Shown here: positions 3,001 to 19,354 of the stretch, piece by piece
Layout of the letters: each line of letters starts with the position of its first letter
How positions within the stretch are numbered: the stretch's first letter is position 1
Assembly (NCBI GenBank): GCA_041917975.1
Contig: JAYRWN010000222.1
Coordinates: 1 to 27,508, forward strand
DNA: 27,508 nt
Origin: Saprospiraceae bacterium
GTDB taxonomy: Bacteria > Bacteroidota > Bacteroidia > Chitinophagales > Saprospiraceae
Direction of reading: 5' to 3'
Made by a program: the position numbers and the translations under genes
The notes under the pieces: model-generated
Database searches by the model: none
Seen by the model: only the letters and a program-made list of their open reading frames with translations
Told to the model about the DNA's origin: nothing

Positions 3001-3522
3001 TGGAATAATTACACCATATTTTTTCATTTTTTCCACCAAATCCAATTTGTGCAACTTAAAAATCAGAAATGGATCATTGTCAATCTCAGTGCTGACCATA
3101 TAAATTACTGCGGCAAGGTGTTTACATGGTACAGCCCAATCAGGACAGCTGCAGCGCATTTTGTAGTCACTCCATTGTTTAGGAAACACACGCAGGTTGG
3201 CTTGGAGCGCAAGCTTAAGAATTCCTTGGTCTAATTCTTTGTTTAATAATTTGGCGATTAAAGCCGGTTTCTGAGCAAGTTCATCCAGAAATAATCTTAA
3301 TTCCGGGTTGAAAAAAGGCGGGATAATAATTTGTACATTGTATGGCATTGGCTGCCGGCCTTTGACCTTGGCTGAAATAATATTATCAACTATTTGTATA
3401 GATTTTACCGAGCCGTTGCGCGCATACCGGCTTCCCCGGACCAAACGGTTAGAGTAGTCAATGTTCTCCAGGGCATTTAAAAACTTTTCACCCCACCAGG
3501 TATTGCCGAAATAACTTGACAT
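10..3522 (-). CDS. SNF2-family DNA/RNA helicase with an N-terminal SWIM zinc-finger domain (1170 aa, complete)
   Basis: The N-terminus carries a SWIM-type CxC...CxH motif (CSCPDWAVPCKHLAAVIYM). The central/C-terminal SNF2 ATPase motifs are: LADDMGLGKT (motif I, P-loop), DEAQNIKN (DEAH-like motif II), LSGTPVENRLSELWSIMDF (SNF2 motif III) and a helicase-C block (LLFSQFTEMGTILKHF ... GGTGLNLTAATHVIHYDLWWNP...QATDRAYRIGQ). The ATG start is at 3522 and the stop is inside the window. Confidence 0.85.
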   Translation of the reverse strand: MSSYFGNTWWGEKFLNALENIDYSNRLVRGSRYARNGSVKSIQIVDNIISAKVKGRQPMPYNVQIIIPPFFNPELRLFLDELAQKPALIAKLLNKELDQGILKLALQANLRVFPKQWSDYKMRCSCPDWAVPCKHLAAVIYMVSTEIDNDPFLIFKLHKLDLVEKMKKYGVIIPSNHSEVPSLFHLHYPDHYTAQKYNDPEKAYRKINFTSIPQLNDPLSALLSSKPPFYSGSADFKATYQTVMNRLVRHADKIIKKEINLIRLWSGRKETQAIDHFTDLTVTIDRFGRTSAYINENKVSVPDLLCALTFLEDFRVDDFQPYIAALDSAYRLALHLIAKGAIIPQLIKVDDDHFKIRWLPVILNAEVRDLVEQLDEILPADLFLWTDGKDYFEIHHQRSLNLLSVILGELIPLLTEPPEEDKFTTLFFKNIPQSFDGPGENALSGGITTWLNIYFLSLGQWIPQLVVDETRGQSFDLMVNMVDRKAEKTIYPLNRLLSEKKHANIRYEVLQNLALLSTYVKGLDKYINTGGLRPMRMDNQTFSAFLSEVIPAIQLLNIEVLLPIALKNILKPKPTLYIKPKAQKGIGFLRLEQLLDFDWQIAIGDRLLSYSDFMDLTKKSDGLLKYKSQYIYVDKNDLEKIDQHFKSGTKLNSFYLLQAAISEEYRGAKIEMTPQIRKMIADLTNYQQIPLPKGILALLRPYQTRGYSWMYRNAKIGFGSVIADDMGLGKTLQVITTIMKYKEEGWLNKGKALVVAPTGLISNWENEIEKFAPKLNSFVYHGSGRKLPMQGEYDVVITSYGTIRGDLNEFIKRTWFVVIIDEAQNIKNLNAEQTKAVKSIPANNYIAMSGTPVENRLSELWSIMDFSNRGLLGSNKEFAEQFSIPIERYNDITLAEKLKKVISPFMLRRLKSDKSIIADLPERIEMDNFALLTPAQAALYNQTLQKALYDIESIKSNDHKSLFVRRGLVLQMILALKQICNHPAQYLKNKRYDEGLSGKILLLFDTLDSIIESGEKVLLFSQFTEMGTILKHFITKRYGDEPLFLHGQCNVKKRNEMVENFQHNHAYKIFILSLKAGGTGLNLTAATHVIHYDLWWNPAVEAQATDRAYRIGQRKNVFVHRFITKNTFEEKINEMMQNKKALANLTISAGENWIGNLSNKELKEIFSLEN

Positions 3523-4388: not shown

Positions 4389-5531
4389 GTGCATTTTTTA
4401 CATCTCCTCTTATTAGTTTATGTCCAGCTCATGCAGAATGGCTATGGTTACCCCGAACATAAATTGGGAAGCCAAGTTAAAGAAGTAGTTCTGTGGACTG
4501 CCGGACAAGGCGGTTACCACACTTACCGCATTCCCGCCTTGATAGTTACCCCAAGAGGACATGTGTTAGCTTTTTGCGAGGGCCGAAAAAATGGTCCGAC
4601 CGACGCCGGGGACATCGACCTGCTGGTCCGTAAATCCACCGACTATGGTCGCACCTGGACAGCCTCCACCTTGTTATGGAATGATCAAAACAACACCTGT
4701 GGCAACCCGGCGCCTATCGCAGACCACATCACTGGTGTCGTTTGGTTATTAGCGACCTGGAATCTAGGGTCTGACCGTGAACCAGACATCATTGCCGGAA
4801 AAAGTGAAGATACCCGCCGTATCTATATTCTCTCCAGTGCTGATGATGGGCAAACCTGGTCACCACCACGGGAAATTACCGCCAGTGTGAAAAATCCGGA
4901 TTGGACCTGGTACGCCACCGGACCCGGAAGTGGGATTCAAATGCAGCAAGGCCCTCATCAGGGCCGGTTGATACTGGGTTGTGACCACATAGAGCGTTTG
5001 ACACATCATTATTATTCACACATCATCTTTAGCGATGATCATGGCGCCACTTGGCAACTGGGCGGGAGCAGCCCACAGCATCAGGTGAACGAATGTGAAG
5101 TGGCCGAATTATCCGGAGGCCGATTATTACTAAACATGCGTAATTATAACTCTGAGAGAAAAAATCGCCAGATCGCGTTCAGTAACGATGGTGGATTGAC
5201 CTGGGCAGGACAACGATTTGATACCAGTCTGGTCGATCCGATCTGCCAGGCCAGCCTGTTTTCTTATCAGGACCTAAAAAAACAAGAGGAGCTCAAAGTA
5301 TTATTCTCTAACCCGTCCAGTTTGCGTCGAGAAAACATGACTTTACAGATCAGTAAAGATGAAAGTGCTTCCTGGAGTAAAAAAATTACCTTATACCCCG
5401 GTCCGAGTGCATATTCGGATCTCGCTGTTTTACCGAATAAAAAGGTGGCTTGTTTATACGAGCGCGGCCGTGATAACCCCTATGAAGAAATTGTTCTGAC
5501 CAGCATAAAATTAAAGGACACAAATAATTAA
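4389..5531 (+). CDS. exo-alpha-sialidase (GH33 family, BNR/Asp-box repeats)
   Basis: A YRIPAL...LAFCEGR motif matches the sialidase RIP motif. There are five Asp-box SxDxGxTW repeats (STDYGRTW, SADDGQTW, SDDHGATW, SNDGGLTW, SKDESASW). The annotated start at 4389 is GTG; an in-frame ATG at 4431 (MQNGYGYPEH...) is an alternative. No convincing signal peptide in either case. Confidence 0.85.
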   Translation: MHFLHLLLLVYVQLMQNGYGYPEHKLGSQVKEVVLWTAGQGGYHTYRIPALIVTPRGHVLAFCEGRKNGPTDAGDIDLLVRKSTDYGRTWTASTLLWNDQNNTCGNPAPIADHITGVVWLLATWNLGSDREPDIIAGKSEDTRRIYILSSADDGQTWSPPREITASVKNPDWTWYATGPGSGIQMQQGPHQGRLILGCDHIERLTHHYYSHIIFSDDHGATWQLGGSSPQHQVNECEVAELSGGRLLLNMRNYNSERKNRQIAFSNDGGLTWAGQRFDTSLVDPICQASLFSYQDLKKQEELKVLFSNPSSLRRENMTLQISKDESASWSKKITLYPGPSAYSDLAVLPNKKVACLYERGRDNPYEEIVLTSIKLKDTNN

Positions 5532-7666: not shown

Positions 7667-8719
7667 ATGTCATCCTTGTTAACTCCGGAACGAATGTATG
7701 ACGCATTGTTAAACCGGAATAGCCAATATGACGGGTTGTTTTATGCCGCCATCACGACGACCGGCATTTTCTGCCGGCCCATCTGCCGGGCCCGCAAACC
7801 CAAGCCGGAGCATGTCCTTTATTTTCATTCTGCTTCAGCTGCTTTGTCTGCTGGTTTTAGGCCGTGTAAAGTATGCCATCCCCTGGCCGGCGCTGAGCCT
7901 ATTCCGGATTTGATTAACAAATTATTGCAAGAATTGGAGCAAAATCCAACGTGGCGTTACCCGGATGTGCTGTTGCGCAAAAATGGCTTTTCTCCCCATC
8001 AGATAAAACAGTGGTTTTTAAAAAATTATCAGCTGACTTTTCAGGCTTATTTACGCAGTCGCCGCATAGGTGCGGCATTTTTTGAATTAAAGGCGGGACA
8101 GAAAGTTACCGAAGCGGCTTTTAATCAGGACTATGAATCCCTCAGTGGATTTCAGGACCAATTTAAGAAGCTTACCGGGCAGTCCCCTTCACACAGTAAA
8201 CACCTGAATATGGTGACCATAAAACGCATCAGCACACCTTTGGGAGCGATGCTGGCCGCTTTCAGTAATCAGGGTTTATGCCTGCTGGAATTTATGGACC
8301 GCAAAATGTTAAAAACACAATTAAACACGGTGTCTAAACAATTAAATGCAGTCATCCTTCCAGGGGATGATGAACGATTTGCCCAACTGGAAACCGAGCT
8401 ACACGAGTATTTTCAGGGTCGTTTAGTTAAATTTAAAACTATTTTGCACCTGGTAGGCACCGATTTTCAACGGCAAGTCTGGCATGAATTGTTAAAGATT
8501 CCTCCCGGTCAAACCCGGTCTTATAAAGAACAAGCTAAAGCCATTGGCCAACCGGAAGCCATCCGGGCAGTCGCTGGCGCTAATGGCCAAAACCGTATTT
8601 CCATCCTCATCCCTTGCCATCGTGTCATCGGAGCAGATGGTCAATTGGTAGGTTATGGCGGAGGACTGCCCCGGAAAAAATATCTGTTGGATCTCGAAGC
8701 CAGCAAAACTACCGGATAA
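7667..8719 (+). CDS. ada: bifunctional Ada: methylphosphotriester-DNA methyltransferase/AraC-type regulator plus O6-methylguanine-DNA methyltransferase
   Basis: The N-terminal Ada zinc-binding domain FCRPICRARKPKPEHVLYFHSASAALSAGFRPCKVCHP is near-collinear with E. coli Ada. A central AraC-type HTH follows. The C-terminal MGMT active site is IPCHRVIGADGQLVGYGGGL (PCHR motif). Confidence 0.9.
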   Translation: MSSLLTPERMYDALLNRNSQYDGLFYAAITTTGIFCRPICRARKPKPEHVLYFHSASAALSAGFRPCKVCHPLAGAEPIPDLINKLLQELEQNPTWRYPDVLLRKNGFSPHQIKQWFLKNYQLTFQAYLRSRRIGAAFFELKAGQKVTEAAFNQDYESLSGFQDQFKKLTGQSPSHSKHLNMVTIKRISTPLGAMLAAFSNQGLCLLEFMDRKMLKTQLNTVSKQLNAVILPGDDERFAQLETELHEYFQGRLVKFKTILHLVGTDFQRQVWHELLKIPPGQTRSYKEQAKAIGQPEAIRAVAGANGQNRISILIPCHRVIGADGQLVGYGGGLPRKKYLLDLEASKTTG

Positions 8720-8755: not shown

Positions 8756-9979
8756 CTAAAGATGTTTGGCTAACTTACCTGCTTGTAAGGCCGGATGAAT
8801 GGTAGCCCCGCGTATCATTTTTGTCAGGCGGCGGTGATAAGCCACATCCTGCCACATGCCTGCAAATTGGGGTCCGGCAAAATTACTGGTCGCCACTGCC
8901 AGCCATTGTCCGGTCTGACAAACCCGCTGTACAGCCAGTTCACCCAATTCTTTAATGATAGACCAATCTAATCCTTCCCAATCCTTAAAATCAACGATGC
9001 CCCAACATTCCGTGGTGATCAAAGGCAACTGTGCTGCTCTGGCAGAAGCGGCTACCAGGTCAATTTCGTCCAATAACAATTTTTGCCAATAGCTTTTTCT
9101 TTCCTGATAGACCCGCAAATGATTTAAGGATAATCGCTGGTAACTGTCGTGGTTAAACCGGTCATAAGCATACCCCACGGCTTTATCGTATTCTCCCTCA
9201 TTGATTTGTGCCATCCAGGTATGATGTTCAAGAAGATCGAAGAATGACAGGTCGGTTTGGGCGTATAAAGCCGGTTGACCTCCGGTGAAGGAGAAACAAT
9301 AGGGTAATTCTGGAAATGCCTGCCGGACTTGACTAATAGCCGTACGCATATAGGTCAGAGATGTTGGGGTGTGCCAGTATCCCCAGGTTTTATCCGGCGG
9401 ATCATTCTTAAAAAATGGACACCATAGGTCTCCCGGCCACTCGTTACACAGGTCTACATACAAGATAACATCCAATAAATCGTCATCAGCAATGGAACGC
9501 AGTGTTTTAATCCAGTTTTGCGCCATGTCTTCAGGGCCCCGGATTAACATTCGCGCCTGGGTTGTATCTTCCCGATACCAGGAGGATAAACCGACTTTTA
9601 TATCCCGTTCTTTGCATTTGCGCAGGAAAGTATTCAAAGCCGGCTGGACTTGCACGGTAATTTTCTCAGGGCTACCCCATAACTGAACACTCCAAACCGG
9701 CACCAGGGTGTATTCCCGCTCAGCCTCCGGACCTACTAAATGGGGGTAGGCATCTATTCTGATTGCATTATACCCGCGGTCGGCCAATTCATCCAGCACA
9801 CGATCCCAATCCTCATAACCCGAACCGGGCCATCGCCGTTCCAGCCACGAAAAATCCCACATGGTAATCGACCGTGGTTGAAGGTTATTTGGCGCAGATG
9901 GCCAAGTAGAATTCAGAGATGTCATGGATGTTCCGGTAGATAAGACTGCCGCGTTATAAATGAATTGCCGACGATCCAT
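8756..9979 (-). CDS. Tat-exported glycoside hydrolase, clan GH-A (GH5-like/cellulase-like fold)
   Basis: The N-terminal twin-arginine signal is MDRRQFIYNAAVLSTGTSM. Candidate acid/base motif LCNEWPG and nucleophile motif ITTECWG are in the clan GH-A arrangement. It is the last gene of the minus-strand operon. Confidence 0.55.
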   Translation of the reverse strand: MDRRQFIYNAAVLSTGTSMTSLNSTWPSAPNNLQPRSITMWDFSWLERRWPGSGYEDWDRVLDELADRGYNAIRIDAYPHLVGPEAEREYTLVPVWSVQLWGSPEKITVQVQPALNTFLRKCKERDIKVGLSSWYREDTTQARMLIRGPEDMAQNWIKTLRSIADDDLLDVILYVDLCNEWPGDLWCPFFKNDPPDKTWGYWHTPTSLTYMRTAISQVRQAFPELPYCFSFTGGQPALYAQTDLSFFDLLEHHTWMAQINEGEYDKAVGYAYDRFNHDSYQRLSLNHLRVYQERKSYWQKLLLDEIDLVAASARAAQLPLITTECWGIVDFKDWEGLDWSIIKELGELAVQRVCQTGQWLAVATSNFAGPQFAGMWQDVAYHRRLTKMIRGATIHPALQAGKLAKHL

Positions 9980-9990
9980 ACTCTACACAT

Positions 9991-10770
9991 TTATGGGATA
10001 AAATTATTCCATACTTCTGCTGCGATTTCCGGATAAACCACAAAGTCAAATAAGGATGGATCATCCGTAAATTGAGTATAAATACGCTTATTATTGACGA
10101 TTCCCAGCTCCTCATATTGCCGGGGAGTTTTTATTTCCAGATCGCGATGGCGATAACGGTTATTGTGATGCCAGGTTACCCACCCCTCTTCTTCTAAAAA
10201 TGGGTGCCATGCCAATCCGCGATGCGCGCGTACGCCGTCGTAAATAAATCCGTAATCCCGCACGCACCACGCACCAAAGGTCAAGGGTTCGTCCGGCGCG
10301 GCACTAATGGTGGCATGTGCCCAATATGGCGGTACAATTATAATATCCCCAGGTACAGCATTCACGGCAAAGCAACGGCCCGGATCGTCTTTGGCTTTCT
10401 CCTGCATCAGGATGATGGCTTTGCCGGACCAGATCTCATACACTTCCGGTGTCGACCAGCCAGAATATTCTGAAGTTTTATGAATATGGCCCTGACTGCG
10501 CACCGGTTCTGCACCCAGTTTACCTGCCGCATAGGTCACGGCTCCATACAATAAATGATGTTGATGGATGAGGGCTTGATCAGCTTTCCGACCAACACCC
10601 ATAGCAATGGCATAGACAGGGTCAGGCCCTGAACAATGGGGATCAGCCAAACTTGCTCTGATCGCATCCAATGTGCGAAATTCCACTGTCGGGCCAAATA
10701 CATCCGTACCATAGTTAAATCCTAAAGGGGAAGCGGTAGGAGTAATGTCGAATCCGGGATTAAAGGTCAT
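9991..10770 (-). CDS. cupin-type glucose-6-phosphate isomerase family protein (cPGI-like, long 259-aa form)
   Basis: It carries the cPGI metal-site signature GHIHKTSEYSGWSTPEVYEIW (GHxH...E.Y) and VPPYWAHATISAAPDEPLTF, matching the archaeal PGI motifs TKGHFHA...EVY and VPPYWAHR...DEPFIF. The N- and C-terminal extensions make it longer than canonical ~190-aa cPGIs. Confidence 0.6.
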   Translation of the reverse strand: MTFNPGFDITPTASPLGFNYGTDVFGPTVEFRTLDAIRASLADPHCSGPDPVYAIAMGVGRKADQALIHQHHLLYGAVTYAAGKLGAEPVRSQGHIHKTSEYSGWSTPEVYEIWSGKAIILMQEKAKDDPGRCFAVNAVPGDIIIVPPYWAHATISAAPDEPLTFGAWCVRDYGFIYDGVRAHRGLAWHPFLEEEGWVTWHHNNRYRHRDLEIKTPRQYEELGIVNNKRIYTQFTDDPSLFDFVVYPEIAAEVWNNFIP

Positions 10771-10782
10771 AATAGTATAGTT

Positions 10783-12315
10783 TTATTCCAGGATAATACC
10801 TTTATCCTGATGTGTTAAATAATAATTTGTCACTGTAGTTATACTTTTCGCCGGCAGGGTAAGCAGAGGGTCTGCCTGCAAAGTCTGCGGCCTTGGATTA
10901 AGTTGGAAGTTTGGTTTGGCAAACATTGATTTAGACACTTGATAAACGTAGAGCAGTTTGGCAGATTGAGGGGACAAATGCAGATTAACCAGGAGTGGTT
11001 CATCGCTTAAATTGAGCAGAAAAACACTGAGATTACCGTGAGGGCTTTTTAAAGCTGCAGCCAGCAAAGTCTCGTCGTTAAATTCATGCTGGCAGGTTAT
11101 CACAGCGGAATATTTTGATAAAAAACGGGATAAAATACCAAAGCCGTAATAGGCTTCCGGTTCCGGCTCAATAATTTGATAATAGTCTTTTTGATTCCTG
11201 TTCCAGGTGCGAATTAACTGCCACTGTCCATCCAGATCACCACGATTGGTAAAACTCCAGCGGTTAAATCCATCCACACCGGCACGCATACCCCGGATGA
11301 CATCCTGAGCGTTAGATAAGGCAGCGGCAAAAGTAGCCTGACCAGGATGATCATCGCCATAACCCAACTGCATGTTACCGTATTCCGATAAAAAGAAGGG
11401 TTTATTTTGAGCATGCGCCCAGTTAGCCCAGCGCCTTAAATTTTGTTCACCCGCAGCGGTGACTCCATCATAAGAATGGATATCAATGGTGCCCAGATAT
11501 TGGGCAAAAGTTAATTTTTCGGGGTCAAATGGAGGCATACTGGTCCAATCCGGGCCAGAAATGGGTACCTGAATACCGCGTCGATCTAATTCTTGTTTTA
11601 ATCTTTTCCAGGCCTCGTCCAAGGTGCCCTGGCCATGTCCGTACTCCCACCAATAGCCCCAGGGCCCGCCGGGGGGTTCATTGGTCATACAAAAATATTT
11701 TATACACGAGTATTTTTTGACCTTGGTCAAATAGTCCAACATGGTAGCGATGCCATGGGCAAAATCATCAAGATTATGTGGAGCACTGATGAGTGGGTGG
11801 ACGCCAGGCCAGGCATTCCACGCCACATCGCTCCACATTTGTTGTAAAAACACATCCACCCCATTTTTTTCAGACCAGTTCAGGATCAGATATAAGGTCT
11901 GCATTTCGTCATTATCCCAATCAAATTTGCCGCGGCGAGGCTCATACATACCCTGACTTAATTCAACCCGTATAAAATTTAAACCCAGCCAGGCAGCATG
12001 CTGTTTTATTTGATTCCAGCCTGAATTATCGGTGACGGGAGGATTTCCACCGTAGGCACTTCCCCGTGGACAATATTCGCGGGCTGGATATTTATATAAA
12101 TGATTATTTAAGATGATTTCTTTGCTGAGGGCGTGCCAGGAAGCACCCATCCCACCACGCATGGTGTAAATGATTTCCGCTGTATTAATAGTTATTTGTT
12201 CCGGTACTGCATCCTTTTTCATCATAATCAGGGTACATAAATTAATACCAATCAACAATAAATTAATCATCGCAAAAAATATTAAGTTTTCACATAACCC
12301 TTGATCGTACCACAT
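10783..12315 (-). CDS. glycoside hydrolase, clan GH-A (GH5-like), with N-terminal signal anchor
   Basis: The N-terminus LIFFAMINLLLIGINLCTLIM is hydrophobic. Acid/base motif CMTNEPPGGPWGYWWE (NEP) and nucleophile motif FFLSEYGN are present. The ATG at 12315 overlaps the end of the upstream gene by 34 nt; an internal ATG at ~12270 is possible. Confidence 0.6.
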   Translation of the reverse strand: MWYDQGLCENLIFFAMINLLLIGINLCTLIMMKKDAVPEQITINTAEIIYTMRGGMGASWHALSKEIILNNHLYKYPAREYCPRGSAYGGNPPVTDNSGWNQIKQHAAWLGLNFIRVELSQGMYEPRRGKFDWDNDEMQTLYLILNWSEKNGVDVFLQQMWSDVAWNAWPGVHPLISAPHNLDDFAHGIATMLDYLTKVKKYSCIKYFCMTNEPPGGPWGYWWEYGHGQGTLDEAWKRLKQELDRRGIQVPISGPDWTSMPPFDPEKLTFAQYLGTIDIHSYDGVTAAGEQNLRRWANWAHAQNKPFFLSEYGNMQLGYGDDHPGQATFAAALSNAQDVIRGMRAGVDGFNRWSFTNRGDLDGQWQLIRTWNRNQKDYYQIIEPEPEAYYGFGILSRFLSKYSAVITCQHEFNDETLLAAALKSPHGNLSVFLLNLSDEPLLVNLHLSPQSAKLLYVYQVSKSMFAKPNFQLNPRPQTLQADPLLTLPAKSITTVTNYYLTHQDKGIILE

Positions 12316-14060
12316 ATCTGGCCTTCACTTAAGCCATAAGGCCGGATACTGTAAGAAATAATCCGGGCAGGAATAATTACGACTTCCGCATAATGTAAAA
12401 TGAACGGTTTAAATATCTCTTGCGGGCTTTCGATCACCACCTCAGCACCTTCTACCAGGCATAACACCTGCACACCGCCACCGGTATAATGAATAACGGT
12501 ATTGTCAAACCAATGCCTGCGGGTTTCAATAAATTCGCTGGCATGTAAACCAGTGCGCTCTTCTTTCCATCCTTCACCTTCCTGCACCAATTCCACTTGA
12601 TTAACCAAGTTCTTACCGGTCCAGGTCGTGGTGCGATCCCATTGAATAACGTTACGGCCATGTTCAAGATTGATGGGGCGTGGACGACCATCTAACCCCA
12701 GGCGCCCCCAGTCCCAGAGCTTAAAAGTAAAAATATACGGTGTAGCGCTGATTTCCAGAACCATGCTGTTTTTTCCTGAACAATGCACCGTCCCGGCAGG
12801 TATCAAAATATGATCATGTTTTTTCACCGGCCAGGTCTGCACGAATTTATCAGCATCAAAATGTATTTCTCCTGCTTGGGCCCTTTGCAAATCATCCATC
12901 AACGCAACTGGATCTGCTCCCTCTTTCAATCCCAAATACACCGTGGCATCTTCATCAGCGTCCATGAAATAATAACTTTCATCCTGCGTATAATGCCATC
13001 CGAATTTTTCCTGAATATATTCCGTGAGGGGATGAACTTGTAAACTAAGATTTCCACCATCCATGGTATCTAAAAAGTCAAAACGGATCGGAAACTCATC
13101 GCCGAAGCGTGCATAAACGGCTTCACCCAGCAATTCCTTAGTTTGAAAAAATACAACATTAATGGATGGAATTTCAATTAAACCATTTTTGAATTGTAAC
13201 AACAGACTATTCTCTTCCGGAACGGCATTAAAACACCAGGCATAATTAGGTGCGGACGGATCCAGTTCACACACCTCTTTCATCCATTGACCACCCCAGG
13301 GTCCGGGATCAAAAAACGGCACCACACTAAACGGTTGGCTCACCGCTTGCCTTAATCCCTCGCAAATGGCTTCACCGGAAATTAATTTCGGATGATTAGG
13401 CTGATTGGTATCCAATAAAAAATCGATGTGTTTAAATATTTTCTTTTTTAAACGATCACAAACCCGCCAATCCACAAAAAAGGCTTGTTTGTATAACAAC
13501 ATCCAGTCCGCGGTATGACGGTTTTGTACACCCAAATTGTCTACGGCATGGCGACGCATTCGTTGCTGAATTTCCCAGCGGCCCAAGTCAGCATAAATGA
13601 GGATATCCGCAGTTGGATAACATAAGGATGCTCCCGGTCCATATATGACCCACACCCCGCTTTGATGGCGATTTATTTCTTTTTCTAATTGGTTTAATTT
13701 CTCCGGTGCAAAAAAATCCCGCATGGTCAAGCGGGTGAGGTATCCGAAAATACGATCTTCGGTCACATCAGGCTGAACCAACCGGCGAATGTGCTCAGGT
13801 GAATGCATATAATCCGTGCTTTGAATAAAATAATTAGCGGACAAACCTCCCCGTATGGCCGGCAAAATTTCTTCATGTAGCACACCTTGGTACGTTTCAA
13901 TAACCACCACCTTTCTTGGTCCGGTCCGATAATGCACAGCCTGGTTAATTTGATGGACAATGTCTTCCCATCCGTGGTCGATACTCCAAAGACTTTCTTG
14001 CAAATCAATAGTTGGTTGTTTGTTGTACTGAACCGGAAAGGTTTTATATTTTTTGCGCAT
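12282..14060 (-). CDS. class I mannose-6-phosphate isomerase (PMI)-like cupin fused to an unrecognised ~240-aa N-terminal domain (592 aa)
   Basis: The C-terminal ~350 aa carry type I PMI motifs: DPGPWGGQW, NYAWCFNAV, the zinc-site motif LSLQVHPLTEYIQEKFGWHYTQDESYY (QVHP) and IPAGTVHCSG. The N-terminal 240 residues (VVVIETYQGV...VWVIYGPGASL...) have no motif I can assign. Confidence 0.6.
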   Translation of the reverse strand: MRKKYKTFPVQYNKQPTIDLQESLWSIDHGWEDIVHQINQAVHYRTGPRKVVVIETYQGVLHEEILPAIRGGLSANYFIQSTDYMHSPEHIRRLVQPDVTEDRIFGYLTRLTMRDFFAPEKLNQLEKEINRHQSGVWVIYGPGASLCYPTADILIYADLGRWEIQQRMRRHAVDNLGVQNRHTADWMLLYKQAFFVDWRVCDRLKKKIFKHIDFLLDTNQPNHPKLISGEAICEGLRQAVSQPFSVVPFFDPGPWGGQWMKEVCELDPSAPNYAWCFNAVPEENSLLLQFKNGLIEIPSINVVFFQTKELLGEAVYARFGDEFPIRFDFLDTMDGGNLSLQVHPLTEYIQEKFGWHYTQDESYYFMDADEDATVYLGLKEGADPVALMDDLQRAQAGEIHFDADKFVQTWPVKKHDHILIPAGTVHCSGKNSMVLEISATPYIFTFKLWDWGRLGLDGRPRPINLEHGRNVIQWDRTTTWTGKNLVNQVELVQEGEGWKEERTGLHASEFIETRRHWFDNTVIHYTGGGVQVLCLVEGAEVVIESPQEIFKPFILHYAEVVIIPARIISYSIRPYGLSEGQICGTIKGYVKT

Positions 14061-14081
14061 ATTTAATTAACTACCAGTTGT

Positions 14082-15026
14082 TTAAATAATCTTTGACCGG
14101 ACCAAATAATCCGCTCCATATAAGGCGGCAGAATCTACGTGTTTGGCCTGGAGGAGTTGTACCTTCCCCCAGGGAGTCCAGGCACGTTGATTTAAATTAG
14201 TTTGTAAAACGGGCAACAATAGGTGTGCCCCATGCATAATTCCACCACTTAAAACAATGACTTGAGGGTCGTATGCATGCACCAGGGAAACCAACACAGC
14301 AGACCAGGCTGAAAGACAATGGTGATAAATATCTAAAGCTACTTCGTCCCCACCTGCAACCCAATGCAATAAAGATTTAAAATCCAAAGAAGGGGCGGCA
14401 AATAAATGACTTTCTGTAAATTTTGCATGCGAGCGAATTAAATCGGGTAATCGCCAAGAAGACGCTTCTGCTTCTGCGCATCCATAGTTTCCGCATGTAC
14501 AACGTGAGCCGCGATGATTTATGACCAGATGACCGCCTAAATTTCCCGCCTGAAAATGCTTGCCAATTAATAATTCATTATTTATCAACACCGCCGACCC
14601 GATGCCGGTACCCAGAGTCATTAACACCACGTCACTATACCCTTTGGCTGCACCGTATTGCCACTCGCCGAGTAAAGCCATGCGCGCATCATTTAAGGCA
14701 AATAACGGCCAGCCCCATTGCTCCCGCGCCCAGGCCAGTAAATCAATTTCCGGCCCGTCATCATATTTTTTATTGGTGGACAAAATGCGTTGCTCGTCAG
14801 AATCGACTAATCCGGCAAACGCAAATCCTAGGCCAGACACCTGTGTGGGCAGCACTTGCGCTGAGTTTAGCAGTTCATCAATTGAAGAAACGATAGGCGG
14901 TAATTGATTTTTTAAGCCCGCGCCAGCATAAGCTTCAATATTTTTTTGCCCTATTAAATTCCCGGACTGCAGTAATCCGATTTTAATCACCGTTCCACCC
15001 AAATCTATACCTACGGTGTAATTCAT
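14082..15026 (-). CDS. ROK-family sugar kinase (glucokinase/mannokinase/fructokinase-like)
   Basis: The N-terminal ATP-binding motif is VGIDLGGTVIKIGLL. The ROK zinc-cysteine motif CTCGNYGCAEAEASS and GHLVINHRG are present. It is 314 aa. Confidence 0.85.
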   Translation of the reverse strand: MNYTVGIDLGGTVIKIGLLQSGNLIGQKNIEAYAGAGLKNQLPPIVSSIDELLNSAQVLPTQVSGLGFAFAGLVDSDEQRILSTNKKYDDGPEIDLLAWAREQWGWPLFALNDARMALLGEWQYGAAKGYSDVVLMTLGTGIGSAVLINNELLIGKHFQAGNLGGHLVINHRGSRCTCGNYGCAEAEASSWRLPDLIRSHAKFTESHLFAAPSLDFKSLLHWVAGGDEVALDIYHHCLSAWSAVLVSLVHAYDPQVIVLSGGIMHGAHLLLPVLQTNLNQRAWTPWGKVQLLQAKHVDSAALYGADYLVRSKII

Positions 15027-15040
15027 GTTCCGCGCGGTTT

Positions 15041-16363
15041 TTATTTAATCAGATGCGTTTCTAATTCTTCCAATGTTTTACTTTTTGTTTCAGGTACGTA
15101 AATCCAGACATAGACCAAAGTGACTACGCAGATTATGGCAAAAATGAGGAAGGTTATTCCTCCGTTTAATTTTTCCAACATCACTGGAAATACAATCGCG
15201 ACCACCGTACAAGCTACCCATAAACTTACCAGAGCTATGGACATGCCTTTACTGCGTAAACGATTAGGAAATAATTCTGCCACCACCACCCATAATGCCG
15301 GCCCCAGTGAAGCGGCAAAAAAAGCGATATAACCCAGGATAAAAATCAGGACTAACATGCTCTGGGTGTGGCCGGTAAAAAACAAATAAGATAATCCCAT
15401 CAAAGTAAGCGCCATTCCTGCTGAGCCGATGAGGATCAACCACCTTCGGCCCATCCGGTCAATTAAGACCATGGCCACCAGGGTGAAAATAAAATTAGTA
15501 CCTCCGACCGCTAAAGTCTGCAGTAAGGCACTGTCATTGGAGATACCTACACTGGCAAATATTTTCGGCGCATAATACATAATGGTATTGATTCCGGTTA
15601 TTTGTTGAAAAACCGAGAGAATAATTCCCACCCATAATAATTTACGCACCGGAGATTGCCATAATTCACTATAACTACCCTCTTCATGAGTACGCAATGT
15701 ATTTTCTATTTCCGCTAATTCGTTTTTGGCATTCAGCTCACCGGAGGTTTTTACCAATATTCTAAATGCGTCATGCGGCAACCCGCGCGCGACTAACCAG
15801 CGCGGGCTTTCAGGTACCAGGAATAAACTAAAAAATAATAAAATGGCCGGTAAAGCCATCACTAAAAACATCCAGCGCCAATTATTGTCACCGCTGTCGG
15901 CTAATAAATAATTACTAAAAAAGGCTATCAGAATACCTATGACAATCGCTAATTGGTTCAGCGAGACTAATACGCCGCGATATTTTGCCGGAGCTAATTC
16001 GGCTATGTACATGGGTGATAAAATGGAGGCCACGCCTACAGCCAATCCACCGATCACACGGGAGGTTATAAAAACAGGTAACGATTGGGCCACGGCACTG
16101 CCCAGGGCTGAGAATAAAAATAAAACTGCGGCACCCATCAGGACTTTTCGACGGCCATAAGCATCGCCCGCTTTGCCGGCTATAACTACTCCGGCAATAC
16201 AACCAAATAATAAACTACTTACTGTCCAGCCTAAACCGACTTCGCTTAAACCAAAATACGGCTGGATAAAATTTAATGTTCCGGAAATAACTGCGGTGTC
16301 AAACCCAAATAACAATCCGCCTAAGGCGGCCACAACTGAAATCAGGATAACGTATGCATTCAT
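15041..16363 (-). CDS. MFS sugar-porter family sugar:H+ symporter (XylE/GalP/AraE-like)
   Basis: Twelve TM-like hydrophobic segments. The sugar-porter signatures GRRKVLM, LVPESPRWL and PETKSKTLEE are present. Confidence 0.9.
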   Translation of the reverse strand: MNAYVILISVVAALGGLLFGFDTAVISGTLNFIQPYFGLSEVGLGWTVSSLLFGCIAGVVIAGKAGDAYGRRKVLMGAAVLFLFSALGSAVAQSLPVFITSRVIGGLAVGVASILSPMYIAELAPAKYRGVLVSLNQLAIVIGILIAFFSNYLLADSGDNNWRWMFLVMALPAILLFFSLFLVPESPRWLVARGLPHDAFRILVKTSGELNAKNELAEIENTLRTHEEGSYSELWQSPVRKLLWVGIILSVFQQITGINTIMYYAPKIFASVGISNDSALLQTLAVGGTNFIFTLVAMVLIDRMGRRWLILIGSAGMALTLMGLSYLFFTGHTQSMLVLIFILGYIAFFAASLGPALWVVVAELFPNRLRSKGMSIALVSLWVACTVVAIVFPVMLEKLNGGITFLIFAIICVVTLVYVWIYVPETKSKTLEELETHLIK

Positions 16364-16387
16364 ATCATTAGTGATAAATAAAACCTT

Positions 16388-16972
16388 TTAAGAGTGACTA
16401 TCTTTCATGTCTATTAAGCGTGGCCTTCCTTCCAGATCCAACAGCCTTGCTGAAAACCCATTTTGAGTTATTTCGTGGTAATTATAGCCGGCATCGGCGG
16501 GCCAGCAAGCACCCACTATTAATGCCTCGTCTCCCACATTTGCCAGGCGGTGGGCGGTTTCTCCCGGAATATAATGTAGGCTTCCTGGAAAGACTTGCTC
16601 GGCCCAGGTTTGCCGCTGGCGATTCATCAGAATTAAAAAACCTTGTCCTTGTACTCCCCAATAAAACTCACCCCGGTCACTTTGCGCATGAAAGTGGCCC
16701 TTGGTCATAAAATATTCCCGGCCCACTTTTCCGGGCATTACGGTGGACACACCAAAAAATAATCCCCCGGCGGTACCCTCTTTTACCGGCAACCACGTTT
16801 GTACTTTGTAAACAAGTTGGTCCGCTGAAATTTTGCTGACTTCGCTGGACTCCAGAAAATATTCTGCAAGCTCAGCAACCGTTCTTGTTTGTTGCACTAC
16901 CGGGGCGCCCAGCATGGTGAAGTCGTGTAAACTTAAGGTAACTGTAGGTGCAAATATTTTCGGATGATTCAT
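16388..16972 (-). CDS. cupin-type glucose-6-phosphate isomerase (cPGI, archaeal-type; 194 aa)
   Basis: The core PGKVGREYFMTKGHFHAQSDRGEFYWGVQGQG...SLHYIPGETAHRLANVGDEALIVGACWPADAGYNYHEITQNGFS is collinear with the Pyrococcus furiosus PGI core, recalled from memory as PGKVGKEFFFTKGHFHAKLDRAEVYVALKGKG...VVYVPPYWAHRTVNIGDEPFIFLAIYPADAGHDYGTIAEKGFS. The metal ligands are conserved. Confidence 0.8.
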   Translation of the reverse strand: MNHPKIFAPTVTLSLHDFTMLGAPVVQQTRTVAELAEYFLESSEVSKISADQLVYKVQTWLPVKEGTAGGLFFGVSTVMPGKVGREYFMTKGHFHAQSDRGEFYWGVQGQGFLILMNRQRQTWAEQVFPGSLHYIPGETAHRLANVGDEALIVGACWPADAGYNYHEITQNGFSARLLDLEGRPRLIDMKDSHS

Positions 16973-19197
16973 GGCATGAGCGGATTAATTTCACTATAGG
17001 AATACGCAGGTAGTGAGCCTATTTTTAAATAACGGCGACTTAATACCGGCTCACCTTGTGCAGGCTGATATTTCGCCACCAAGGTATAACCTCCTTTGGT
17101 TCGCGGTAGTTTGATCTGAATAGGTATTTTGGTCGTAATAAATGGGGCCAGTTTTATTTCCAATTCTTGGGCATATACTTTTTGCCCTGCTGGGTTATAT
17201 AAATGTACAGCAACCTGTCCTTGACTTAATTGTGCTTGATGGTTTAGGCCGTATAAATTAAAATGTAACATGGACCCAGGCCTATGTGGAGGAACATGCT
17301 TGGTATATCGCTCGTCGGTTAAATTTATAAAAGTTGCCGCCGGGGCAAATGCATGTTTAAACCAGTGGATGGTGGGTGAGGGTTTTAAATCACGAATTTG
17401 ATCGATAAACCAATCGCCGGTATAGCCATAATTATTAGCCAAATAACAAAAAGCCAATACGCCTGCAGCTTGAGTCCCTACCCGCAGCCATTCCGTTTCT
17501 AATTGTAACCAATACGCTTGAAACTCGCGATTTTGATCAGGGGTGGACTGTGGACCGAGATAATATTTATAAACATCCAATGTAAGTTTACTGGGCTGAC
17601 CATTGCGCCACAGCCAAACCCACCCATACTCATTGATAAGTTGGGCCGCTGAAGAAACTTCCATGCGCTGTATCATCTCCGGATGGTAATCAAGGTTACC
17701 AAGCGGGTAGGGATTTTTATTAAATAATTCCGGCGTCATCCAGGGCAAAGGACCTTGATAAGGATGTGGTTCATCCATTTCATCCAAAATCATATGGTCA
17801 CTGGTCATATATCCGGCATCCCAAATCCGGGTGGGGTCTAGCTCTTTTAGTTCGGGGATGAGTTGTTTTCCAATAAAATCATCCCAGTTTTCATTAATAG
17901 CATCCCAAATGACAATGCTGGGATGACTTCCATCACTCCAAATCCAATCGGTATATTCCTGCCGAATCTGTGCATCCCACCCGTGATTTTGCCAATACAG
18001 CCATTCATTTTGGAACATTATCCCCGCTTCATCCGCCAGATCATACCAAAAATCGGGTAAAATACCTACACAAACCCGCATAGCATTCCAGTGTAATTGT
18101 TTCGGATAATCCACTAATAATTTTTTGACCCAGGCGCGATCCCAAACTAAAGCACCACAATCCGGATCTTCAAAAAACCGGTGTAAAGTCAGGTTAGTCC
18201 CGGATAGAATAATTTTTTCTCCATTGAGGTAAAAATATTTTCCCTTGCGCGTAAAATCACGCATACCGAAATTTTTTACTACCTGATCTGACCTCATACC
18301 TTCAGTCAGTATTTGTACCTCCGCAGCATATAAAAAAGGTGCCTCTGGTGACCATAATTTAAAAGAATCCAAGGAAATGGTGCAGGCAAATTCGGTCTGA
18401 TTATCGCGTTTGGTTATGATCGGATGTTTGACTTGAGCGATCATTTTACCACTTAATTTTTCCCTGATTGTGACCAGAAACTGCGACGTATCATACATTG
18501 CATCACCATAATTAATCTGAGAAGGGTTAAAATTGCGTAACAAAGATTTGACAGTCACAGTTTTTCCTTGCACCGAAGGTAAAAGTAACGTGCGGTCAAT
18601 ACGAATGGCATGGGTAAATGATAGCTCTACATCATCCCAAATTCCCGGCAGGTAGTGTTCTTTTTCTTTATCCGTACTTCCGGCAGCCGCACTAGGTAGC
18701 CAAGCACGATCCCCTAACCTGATAAGTATTTCATTTTCCTCACCGTATTTTAGGGCTCGCAATGGAAATTCAACTGGGGTGTAACATGCCATGGACCCAC
18801 CAAGATCCTGGCCATTGACAAAGACCTGGGTGACATATTGGCTCTTTTTAATACTGATCACACCATATAAGTTTTTATAGTTGGCAGGTATAAATACCTT
18901 CCGTTTATACCAACTGTACCTTGGAGTATAATCCAGGGCCAGAAGATTATGGGCCATCTTAATTACTGTCTTTTCAGGTCGTCTAAAAAACTGTTCATAA
19001 TCATCAATGAGTGGAGAGGCCAGGTGAATTAAACCGGGAACCGGAATATTGCGCGTAAAAGCGAAGGGTGGAAATGCAGTGAAGGATTGCTCAAACTGCC
19101 AAACTCCATTGAGTTGAATGACCTGTCGCGGAGCATTAGTTTGCGCGCCCAGCTGTAGAGAAACAATGAGCAACCAGATAAATTTGACTCGGTGCAT
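16969..19197 (-). CDS. secreted glycoside hydrolase family 2 (beta-galactosidase/beta-mannosidase/beta-glucuronidase class)
   Basis: The signal peptide is MHRVKFIWLLIVSLQLGAQT. An N-terminal GH2 sugar-binding motif NGVWQFEQ and the acid/base region SHPSIVIWDAINENW (compare LacZ NHPSVIIWSLGNESG) are present. It is 742 aa and is the first gene of the operon. Confidence 0.8.
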   Translation of the reverse strand: MHRVKFIWLLIVSLQLGAQTNAPRQVIQLNGVWQFEQSFTAFPPFAFTRNIPVPGLIHLASPLIDDYEQFFRRPEKTVIKMAHNLLALDYTPRYSWYKRKVFIPANYKNLYGVISIKKSQYVTQVFVNGQDLGGSMACYTPVEFPLRALKYGEENEILIRLGDRAWLPSAAAGSTDKEKEHYLPGIWDDVELSFTHAIRIDRTLLLPSVQGKTVTVKSLLRNFNPSQINYGDAMYDTSQFLVTIREKLSGKMIAQVKHPIITKRDNQTEFACTISLDSFKLWSPEAPFLYAAEVQILTEGMRSDQVVKNFGMRDFTRKGKYFYLNGEKIILSGTNLTLHRFFEDPDCGALVWDRAWVKKLLVDYPKQLHWNAMRVCVGILPDFWYDLADEAGIMFQNEWLYWQNHGWDAQIRQEYTDWIWSDGSHPSIVIWDAINENWDDFIGKQLIPELKELDPTRIWDAGYMTSDHMILDEMDEPHPYQGPLPWMTPELFNKNPYPLGNLDYHPEMIQRMEVSSAAQLINEYGWVWLWRNGQPSKLTLDVYKYYLGPQSTPDQNREFQAYWLQLETEWLRVGTQAAGVLAFCYLANNYGYTGDWFIDQIRDLKPSPTIHWFKHAFAPAATFINLTDERYTKHVPPHRPGSMLHFNLYGLNHQAQLSQGQVAVHLYNPAGQKVYAQELEIKLAPFITTKIPIQIKLPRTKGGYTLVAKYQPAQGEPVLSRRYLKIGSLPAYSYSEINPLMP

Positions 19198-19354
19198 CGT
19201 GTTAATTATATCAAAAGCACTAAAGCAATCTCAATCCATGATCAATAGCGACAAATTAAACAATTATCTCTGCCCAAAGACAGCCTTATAGAATAATCAT
19301 CATTGATTCTGATTTAAATCATGCTGAGGAATTGCACCAAGGCCATAAAGAAAA

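Follow-up and report, generated by a model that had tools for sequence, protein, structure and literature searches.

The stretch of DNA analysed here, from a Saprospiraceae bacterium and referred to as the window, is 27,508 nt long and contains a tightly packed operon of eight genes on the minus strand, which runs from 19197 to 8756, its neighbouring genes overlapping by 4 bp or lying 11-24 bp apart, and which is bounded at both ends by divergent or convergent genes. Two open reading frames, at 16388-16972 (194 aa) and 9991-10770 (259 aa) of the minus strand, encode cupins resembling the cupin-type phosphoglucose isomerase (cPGI); an earlier note on this DNA had placed them at these positions and within a single eight-gene sugar operon, and both statements hold. 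We call them the short and the long cupin. No SusC/SusD pair is found in the 27,508-nt window. The features are as follows.

19205-19234, minus strand: promoter-like site, TTGAGA-18-TG-TATAAT, 11/12 matches, the best of the region; a consensus match only
16969-19197, minus strand: divergent GH2 glycosidase, 742 aa, with an N-terminal signal-like sequence; Pfam GH2 domains; operon gene 1
16388-16972, minus strand: short cupin-type PGI-like protein, 194 aa; PF06560, 75.4 bits
15041-16363, minus strand: transporter of the MFS sugar-porter family, 440 aa; PF00083, 418 bits; TIGR00879 over its cut-off
14082-15026, minus strand: ROK-family sugar kinase of an atypical subfamily, 314 aa; PF00480, 168 bits
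12282-14060, minus strand: phosphomannose isomerase (PMI)-like protein, 592 aa, in two parts, an N-terminal alpha/beta domain and a type I PMI-like cupin
10783-12315, minus strand: GH5-like putative glycosidase, 510 aa as an open reading frame; weak PF00150, 27.1 bits
9991-10770, minus strand: long cupin-type PGI-like protein, 259 aa; PF06560, 79.2 bits
8756-9979, minus strand: PF12876 'cellulase-like' TIM-barrel protein, 407 aa, with a Tat-like signal; PF12876, 495 bits; last operon gene

The promoter-like site (19234-19205) sits immediately 5' of the first gene of the operon.

The closest solved structures to the 742-aa GH2 protein are of the GH2 beta-galactosidase/beta-galactofuranosidase type, at only E~1e-13; the GH5-like protein, whose start is placed at ~12270 by gene callers (giving 495 aa, as in public assemblies), has no solved relative that we could find, and the sole solved relative of the PF12876 protein is 3gyc (E=1e-147), deposited as 'Putative glycoside hydrolase'. 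Among the NCBIfam equivalog models, those for XylE and GlcP score the transporter under their cut-offs, and every equivalog and subfamily model scores the ROK kinase far under its cut-off. The kinase does carry the zinc motif CxCGxxGCxE, as CTCGNYGCAE; the usual sugar-binding motif of ROK kinases is ExGH, and where its Glu would stand, seven diverse kinases of the cassette whose motif region was inspected have Asn, Ser or Cys.

The PMI-like protein consists of an extra alpha/beta domain (residues ~1-240) and a cupin part resembling type I phosphomannose isomerases (~241-590). It had previously been called a class I PMI, a name that is borne out by homology and fold relative to solved PMIs and by a retained Gln/His/Glu/His zinc site, the ligand pattern known from the Candida and Salmonella enzymes; it is not borne out by the Pfam threshold (PF20511, PMI_typeI_cat: 14.4 bits, where the cut-off is 22; E=0.043), by NCBIfam, where the protein has no match, or by the additional 240-residue N-terminal domain. 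The AlphaFold model of this protein (pLDDT 58) is usable at the level of domains only.

The short and the long cupin

Both cupins pass the gathering cut-off of PF06560, the Pfam profile for cupin-type PGI (20.7 bits), and in the same Pfam search neither matched any other isomerase family at E<=10, including the lyxose-isomerase family PF07385. The assignment to cPGI made in the earlier note is thus upheld, and membership in the lyxose isomerases or another cupin family can be ruled out for either protein, PF06560 being the sole match. Since the enzyme of Pyrococcus (PfPGI) scores 145 bits and a Salmonella plasmid cPGI 262 bits on this profile, the two cupins are, judged by profile score, genuine but peripheral members of the family.

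In PfPGI the metal is bound by His88, His90, Glu97 and His136, and Y152 and H158 have been implicated in proton transfer (PMC6627849). The predicted counterparts of the metal ligands are present in both cupins, as had been claimed: H93/H95/E102/H141 in the short cupin, invariant among 59 aligned family members, and H95/H97/E109/H152 in the long one, invariant among 78. The short cupin finds the Pyrococcus and Thermococcus PGIs among solved structures (E=4.5e-31) and is 35% identical to PfPGI across 164 residues; its family, typically ~187-194 aa long, conserves the equivalents of Y52, T/S71, T85, G87, Y99 and Y160. An invariant Trp takes the place of Y152, while the equivalent of His158 is Tyr163 in the window copy and His in 161/179 family members. 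The long cupin, which has N- and C-terminal extensions, matches the same solved structures at only E=1.2e-9 and is 33% identical to PfPGI across 126 residues. It is the divergent copy, as the earlier note described it, and retains the equivalents of Y52 (as Tyr53), G87 and Y160 along with its metal site. Identity within its family stays at ~64% across phyla and over 100 alignment columns are invariant; specific to the clade are the changes T71V, T85S and K86Q as well as an invariant C169, R171, Y173 and F175, these four probably close to the pocket. An AlphaFold model of the long cupin was unusable (pLDDT 43), the alignment of sequences that are all ~64% identical being too shallow.

Two signatures of cPGIs were reportedly defined by Hansen and colleagues in 2005, TX3PX3GXEX3TXGHXHX6-11EXY and PPX3HX3N. 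The first is matched strictly by 29/179 members of the short family and by 166/179 when Ser and Thr are allowed to interchange, the window copy having Ser at the first Thr; the second is matched by none of the 179, which have P-[G/A/S]-x3-H-x3-N instead. The description of the short copy as canonical, motif for motif, is therefore right as to its good overall alignment and too strong as to the second signature, which reads P-G rather than P-P, and as to the Tyr at His158. In the long family the first signature is absent from all 198 members even in relaxed form, with Val at the first Thr and Ala at the Pro, and the second is matched by 2/198, PP-x3-H-x3-S being found in 194/198.

Loss of Tyr152 and His158 in the long protein was considered as evidence for a new activity and dropped, as both positions also vary in the alignment among a sister group of 250-290 aa and among the proteins from Salmonella and Sinorhizobium plasmids. 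Hansen and colleagues reportedly found the enzymes of Salmonella and Ensifer to be active PGIs, so that changes at these positions are weak predictors. The long cupin has a sister clade whose members are fused to, or clustered with, enzymes of 3-hexulose 6-phosphate.

The two cupins had been taken for a paralogue pair within one operon. Pairwise comparison gives only 27% identity between them (E=7e-8), so that each is closer to PfPGI (35% and 33%) than to the other; this excludes a recent tandem or paralogue duplication and indicates that the short and long cupins represent two anciently diverged subfamilies, which are inherited jointly as part of a cassette.

A cassette conserved across phyla

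The cassette comprises the short cupin, the atypical ROK kinase, the ~590-aa PMI-like protein and the long cupin; an MFS sugar porter usually accompanies them. Of 42 long-cupin loci with at least 8 kb on either side, 41 contained the PMI-like gene, 38 the short cupin, 35 the ROK kinase and 29 the sugar porter; the recurrent order is short-ROK-PMI-like-long, with the PMI-like gene directly upstream of the long cupin in 41/42 loci. Its carriers include Bacteroides clarus, Dysgonomonas, Parabacteroides distasonis, Prolixibacteraceae, Cyclobacteriaceae, Saprospiraceae, Persicobacter, Verrucomicrobiota, Planctomycetales, Christensenella and Cohnella. Persicobacter has the four cassette genes and a regulator as a unit of their own, with reading frames that overlap; overlap between the ROK and long-cupin genes is also seen in Cohnella and P. 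distasonis. One seeming ROK-cupin fusion (P0431) is likely a gene-call artefact arising from such overlapping genes.

At 90% identity the homologues form 2793 clusters for the long and 1542 for the short type, and 878 representatives are detectable at 50% identity. Species-level genomes that carry the long type number at least 573 and come from several phyla, and the earlier statement that such proteins are rare in bacteria was thus overstated. The two-cupin pairing is not special to this Saprospiraceae genome; it belongs to a widespread bacterial cassette, on which our literature search found no paper. Joint retention of the two cupins across phyla favours the earlier proposal that their roles are non-redundant.

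The glycan-degradation loci that host the cassette differ by lineage, containing variously GH2, PF12876, GH5-like, six-hairpin GH63/GH78-like and GH38-like proteins and SusC/D pairs. Orthologues of the GH2 protein (55-65% identity) adjoin the cassette in ~16/84 loci and remoter relatives (27-31%) in ~10 more, and the GH5-like gene is found in just 6/84 related loci. P. distasonis has both a GH2 orthologue (58% identity) and, downstream of the cassette, a member of the PF12876 family, and a six-hairpin family of ~714 aa is common to Bacteroidota and Cohnella. An attempt to name the glycan from these neighbours failed, as no informative solved relative was found for the GH2, GH5-like and PF12876 proteins, a 713-aa protein of Cohnella or an 896-aa protein of B. 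clarus. GH38-like and MGH1/GH63-like enzymes recur beside the cassette, a hint that the neighbourhood is mannose-related. The recurring MGH1-like hydrolases might also hint at mannosylglycerate or glucosylglycerate as a substrate; this remains a hint because a glycerate kinase is not conserved in the cassette loci, and SusC/D pairs and carbohydrate-binding modules are present in many of them.

Proposed function and relation to known systems

We lean towards the view that the cassette is a cytoplasmic module which phosphorylates an imported hexose and isomerises it to fructose-6-phosphate, with the two cupins being non-redundant. Exported glycosidases would release the hexose or hexoses, the sugar porter would take them up, and the ROK kinase would convert them to hexose 6-phosphate, which three metal-dependent cupin-fold aldose-ketose isomerases would then channel to fructose-6-phosphate. 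Of the three, the short cupin is the likeliest glucose-6-phosphate/fructose-6-phosphate isomerase and the PMI-like protein the likeliest mannose-6-phosphate/fructose-6-phosphate isomerase, while the long cupin, with a substrate pocket that appears remodelled, may carry out a third, non-redundant isomerisation or epimerisation. The earlier note had suggested mannose-6-phosphate as a possible substrate of one cupin; the dedicated PMI-like gene just upstream of the long cupin in 41/42 loci argues for a third activity rather than that of a PMI. The accessory glycosidases vary while the cassette is constant, which would suit a module that funnels a common monosaccharide downstream of them. A combination of ROK kinase, PMI and GntR regulator is also the logic of the glucomannan (gmu) operon of B. 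subtilis. On the other hand, Bacteroides and Parabacteroides typically possess conventional pgi and manA, so that a funnel for glucose and mannose would be redundant there. As a further counterpoint to such a funnel, interconversion of glucose, mannose and fructose needs one C1-C2 isomerase fewer than three. A ROK kinase lacking the Glu of ExGH and a long cupin that is ~64% identical across phyla together suggest a substrate less usual than glucose or mannose. We speculate, tentatively and well short of an even chance, that the cassette degrades some hexose besides glucose, mannose and fructose along a route not described before. Its long cupin would then add a novel sugar-phosphate isomerase or epimerase activity to the cPGI fold, and the 742-aa GH2, PF12876 and ~714-aa six-hairpin proteins would release the sugar.

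A particular form of such a route, which we consider rather unlikely, would involve an allose/psicose-type or other C2/C3-modified hexose that is phosphorylated by the ROK kinase before the cupins shift the carbonyl or epimerise, going from aldose 6-phosphate through 2-ketose 6-phosphate to fructose-6-phosphate, with a logic like that of E. coli AlsK/RpiB/AlsE. It would account for a conserved core of a kinase and several isomerases with neither aldolase nor dehydrogenase, for a ROK family that lacks the ExGH Glu and matched no NCBIfam equivalog, for the exceptional constraint on a long cupin with a remodelled pocket, and for linked glycosidases that come nearly all from uncharacterised or very divergent families; the association of the sister clade with 3-hexulose 6-phosphate enzymes also places the branch next to carbonyl-migration chemistry. 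However, the characterised enzymes in the loci point to no candidate sugar, the metal site of the PMI-like protein is canonical, the GH38-like and MGH1-like neighbours indicate ordinary mannose or glucose, and the scheme is reached purely by inference.

Less probable is action of the long cupin on an unphosphorylated sugar, as in cupin-fold lyxose and mannose isomerases, where an imported aldose would be turned into a ketose and only then phosphorylated by the ROK kinase. The first residue of the cPGI signature, T71, is near-universal in the other aligned branches and Val in the long clade, K86 is changed to Gln, and in loci that lack the PMI-like gene, translation of the long cupin is coupled to that of ROK, all of which would suit this order of steps. 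Against it speak the lack of a Pfam lyxose-isomerase match at E<=10, the retained equivalents of Y52, G87 and Y160, the invariant R91, R132, R171 and R181, which could bind phosphate, and the usual place of the long cupin after the PMI-like gene and not after the transporter. It also seems distinctly improbable that the cupins are merely redundant PGI isozymes or the two parts of one heteromeric PGI: if they were simply redundant, one copy should often have been lost, but 38/42 loci across phyla keep the two; they share only 27% identity with different lengths and pocket residues, and two genes lie between them in most loci. Membership of both in PF06560, their intact metal sites and the dimeric state of cPGIs would agree with either arrangement, and a heteromer would in addition explain the near-constant co-inheritance of the pair.

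More widely, the current annotations, '(archaeal) glucose-6-phosphate isomerase' and 'class I mannose-6-phosphate isomerase', mask a tightly conserved unit of four to five genes. This unit occurs in hundreds of species, including the human-gut genera Bacteroides, Parabacteroides and Dysgonomonas and marine and sediment Bacteroidota, within polysaccharide utilisation loci whose glycosidases are themselves uncharacterised. Identification of its substrate would give a function to thousands of genes, help to find the glycans that are targeted, and reveal what a remodelled cPGI pocket is capable of; the distribution also corrects the picture of bacterial cupin PGIs as sporadic archaeal imports.

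With the PGIs of Pyrococcus and T. litoralis the two cupins share the Pfam family, the His/His/Glu/His site and the Glu-x-Tyr motif, but they score only about half as high as PfPGI on the family model (75-79 vs 145 bits). The short cupin differs from PfPGI by PG in place of PP, Trp at Y152 and, in this clade, Tyr at His158, the long one by a 5-residue insert before the catalytic Glu, its terminal extensions, T71V and K86Q; moreover, both belong to a cassette for sugar catabolism and not to central glycolysis.

Bacterial cPGIs of the Salmonella and Ensifer/Sinorhizobium types are reported to have been characterised by Hansen and colleagues. Both types likewise belong to PF06560, and the Salmonella type is also long (280 aa) and aligns with residues 50-244 of the long cupin, yet both are just 20-26% identical to the latter, lack the ROK/PMI-like/short-cupin context, and keep T71, P75, T85 and N140, all four of which are changed in the long clade. 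The Salmonella type lies instead in a ptsG-like/cupin/hxlB/hxlA cluster, and one relative is an HPS-cupin-PHI triple fusion.

A further related system is the gmu operon of B. subtilis, with the ROK kinase GmuE, the phosphomannose isomerase GmuF and the GntR-type regulator GmuR. Both systems place a ROK hexose kinase and a type I PMI in one transcript with enzymes that degrade glycans, in many cases under control of a GntR-family regulator, and release would be followed by phosphorylation and isomerisation to fructose-6-phosphate; in contrast to the cassette, the gmu operon has no cupin-type PGI genes, uses a PTS in place of MFS or SusC/D transport, and encodes a PMI of normal size (~315 aa) without the N-terminal kinase-like domain.

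An eight-gene operon in the window

Both cupin ORFs lie exactly where the earlier note had placed them (16388-16972 and 9991-10770), in a run of eight co-directional genes that extends on the minus strand from 19197 down to 8756, with genes spaced by 11-24 bp or overlapping by 4 bp. A strong promoter-like site, recognised by consensus match only, lies directly 5' of the GH2 gene; the operon is bordered by a divergent gene from 19698 and a convergent Ada homologue.

Genes of the operon, in order
Gene 1 (-): GH2 protein, 742 aa
Gene 2, 16388-16972 (-): short cupin, 194 aa
Gene 3 (-): MFS sugar porter
Gene 4, 14082-15026 (-): ROK kinase
Gene 5 (-): PMI-like protein, 592 aa
Gene 6, 10783-12315 (-): GH5-like protein (weak likeness)
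Gene 7, 9991-10770 (-): long cupin, 259 aa
Gene 8, 8756-9979 (-): PF12876 'cellulase-like' protein

Other genes of the window
19698-21215 (+): divergent neighbour, 505 aa; its sole match is weak and partial, between its C-terminal part and membrane dipeptidase M19 (36 bits)
7667-8719 (+): convergent, bifunctional Ada-like protein with Ada zinc-binding, AraC-type HTH and O6-methylguanine methyltransferase domains
10-3522 (-): SNF2-family helicase, large (1170 aa); it also carries SWIM zinc finger and DUF3670 domains
4389-5531 (+): BNR/sialidase-like repeat protein
21832-22932 (+): SPFH/Band 7 protein; GC content is at its lowest here (0.34 vs ~0.43 in the rest of the window)
24328-25791 (-): hydrolase with a T9SS C-terminal sorting domain, which supports a Bacteroidota origin of the window

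Two divergent cupin families

The earlier note had assigned both proteins to the cupin-type phosphoglucose isomerases (cPGI, PF06560), naming lyxose isomerase as a competing family, and the assignment holds: the short and long cupins score 75.4 and 79.2 bits on PF06560 (cut-off 20.7) and match no other family, the lyxose-isomerase family giving no match for either in a Pfam search even at E-values up to 10. The same model gives 145 bits for the Pyrococcus furiosus enzyme (PfPGI) and 262 bits for a Salmonella plasmid homologue; both window cupins are thus peripheral members. NCBIfam has a model for neither. Among solved structures, the Pyrococcus and Thermococcus PGIs match the short cupin at E=4.5e-31, but the long cupin no better than at E=1.2e-9. 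The earlier note had also read an intact His/His/Glu/His metal site in both, and indeed equivalents of all four PfPGI metal ligands (His88, His90, Glu97 and His136; PMC6627849) are kept in both and invariant within each family.

The short and long cupins share 27% identity across 105 residues (E=7e-8), compared with 35% (E=1e-35) and 33% (E=3e-13), respectively, to PfPGI. They are thus two old branches of the family and not recent paralogues; the earlier note had read them as paralogues within one operon. The short family retains Y52, T/S71, T85, G87, Y99 and Y160 (PfPGI numbering), has an invariant Trp at position Y152, and at H158 has His in 161 of 179 members and Tyr in the window's clade. 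The long clade retains Y52 (as Y53), G87, Y99, PPxW and Y160, carries the substitutions T71V, T85S and K86Q and a 5-residue insert N-terminal to the catalytic Glu, and has invariant C169, R171, Y173 and F175. Y152 and H158 of PfPGI are implicated in proton transfer (PMC6627849). In our alignment, however, a large sister group next to the long clade and the Salmonella and Sinorhizobium proteins vary at both positions too, so the loss of these two residues alone is no argument for a new activity; T71V sets the long clade apart more clearly, since Thr is near-universal there in other branches. Two cPGI signature patterns were reportedly defined by Hansen et al. in 2005. Of these patterns, signature 1 is found in the short family in relaxed form only (166/179), and signature 2 never, P-G/A/S standing in place of P-P; in the long family they match 0 and 2 of 198 members.

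A cassette inherited across phyla

The long type comprises at least 2793 homologue clusters (90% identity) and is encoded in at least 573 genomes when each species is represented by a single one, with ~64% identity across Bacteroidota and Firmicutes and more than 100 invariant columns. The window's eight proteins were compared by tblastn with 84 loci, and counts were taken from only those 42 whose flanks reach 8 kb or more in each direction.

Occurrence among the 42 loci
PMI-like: 41
Short cupin: 38
ROK: 35
MFS: 29
GH2: 13
GH5-like: 2
PF12876: 1

Most often the genes run short-ROK-PMI-like-long, and MFS may or may not be part of the run. Among the hosts are Bacteroides clarus, Dysgonomonas, Tannerella, Prolixibacteraceae, Cyclobacteriaceae and Saprospiraceae, as well as Verrucomicrobiota, a Planctomycetales isolate, Christensenella and Cohnella, the last with a ROK-long-short unit adjoining an ABC transporter. 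Persicobacter has a stand-alone unit of regulator, short cupin, ROK, PMI-like protein and long cupin with overlapping frames, and a Parabacteroides distasonis record reads AraC-short-ROK-long-MFS-PF12876-GH2-SusC-SusD, the cassette there being followed by a PF12876 and GH2 pair. Both cupins are thus co-inherited across phyla with the ROK kinase and PMI-like protein, embedded in glycan-utilisation loci. The feature is best described as a widespread cassette, predicted to act in sugar-phosphate isomerisation, around two divergent cPGI subfamilies, and not as an odd duplication confined to a single operon. We found no literature on it.

The accessory genes differ from lineage to lineage. A six-hairpin family of ~714 aa lies beside the cassette in both Bacteroidota and Cohnella (Firmicutes), with 31-41% full-length identity; it has a weak PF17389 match only, and no solved relative was found.

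Members of this family in related loci, among others
L001: 5816-7957
L025: 4527-6680
L021: 12865-17440

It is a candidate glycosidase family, so far uncharacterised, that may be linked to the cassette's sugar. Other neighbours are larger six-hairpin proteins with CBM35, GH38-like, GH31, GH43, GH127-like and MGH1/GH63-like enzymes, sulfatases, FG-GAP proteins and SusC/D pairs. The PF12876 and GH5-like proteins of the window are putative clan-A-like glycosidases for which we found no characterised relative, the sole PF12876 structure (3gyc) being deposited as a 'Putative glycoside hydrolase', function not given. A constant enzymatic core with variable glycosidases has the look of a downstream funnel for one common released sugar.

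Predicted function and other cPGI branches

We suggest that an imported sugar would be phosphorylated and isomerised to fructose-6-P, with the short cupin acting as PGI, the PMI-like protein as PMI, and the long cupin adding a third isomerase or epimerase activity that is not redundant; the co-retention of both cupins disfavours simple redundancy. The earlier note's observation is confirmed and its interpretation supported in part.

The sugar may be ordinary mannose or glucose, as the GH38-like and MGH1-like neighbours and the analogy with the B. subtilis gmu operon suggest. The surplus isomerase, the uncharacterised glycosidases and the atypical kinase hint at a less usual hexose. In ROK kinases the ExGH sugar-binding motif usually opens with Glu; seven diverse kinases of the cassette have Asn, Ser or Cys there (AGNLGGH in the window), the zinc motif is present, and no curated NCBIfam kinase equivalog reaches its cut-off for the window's kinase. 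Should the long cupin, or the cassette as a whole, turn out to handle a novel sugar, the feature would gain considerably in importance.

The family, held by the earlier note to be rare in bacteria, is far from rare there: when representatives clustered at 50% identity were searched exhaustively, 878 matched at E<=1e-3, the long clade shrinking to a handful at this clustering. The long architecture is not unique either, since the sister group next to it (24-35% identity) has 250-290 aa. One sister-group protein (P0504, 677 aa) joins three parts in a single chain, namely 3-hexulose-6-P synthase (HPS, OMPdecase), cupin and a SIS domain of 6-phospho-3-hexuloisomerase (PHI) type. Salmonella and E. 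coli plasmids carry a ptsG-like/cupin/hxlB/hxlA cluster adjoining resistance genes, as in the Salmonella IncI plasmid NZ_MT507880.1 (locus L090, 6177-9912), whose 280-aa cupin is the 262-bit homologue and belongs to a cPGI branch other than the window's. The cPGI branches are thus wired into different sugar-phosphate pathways.
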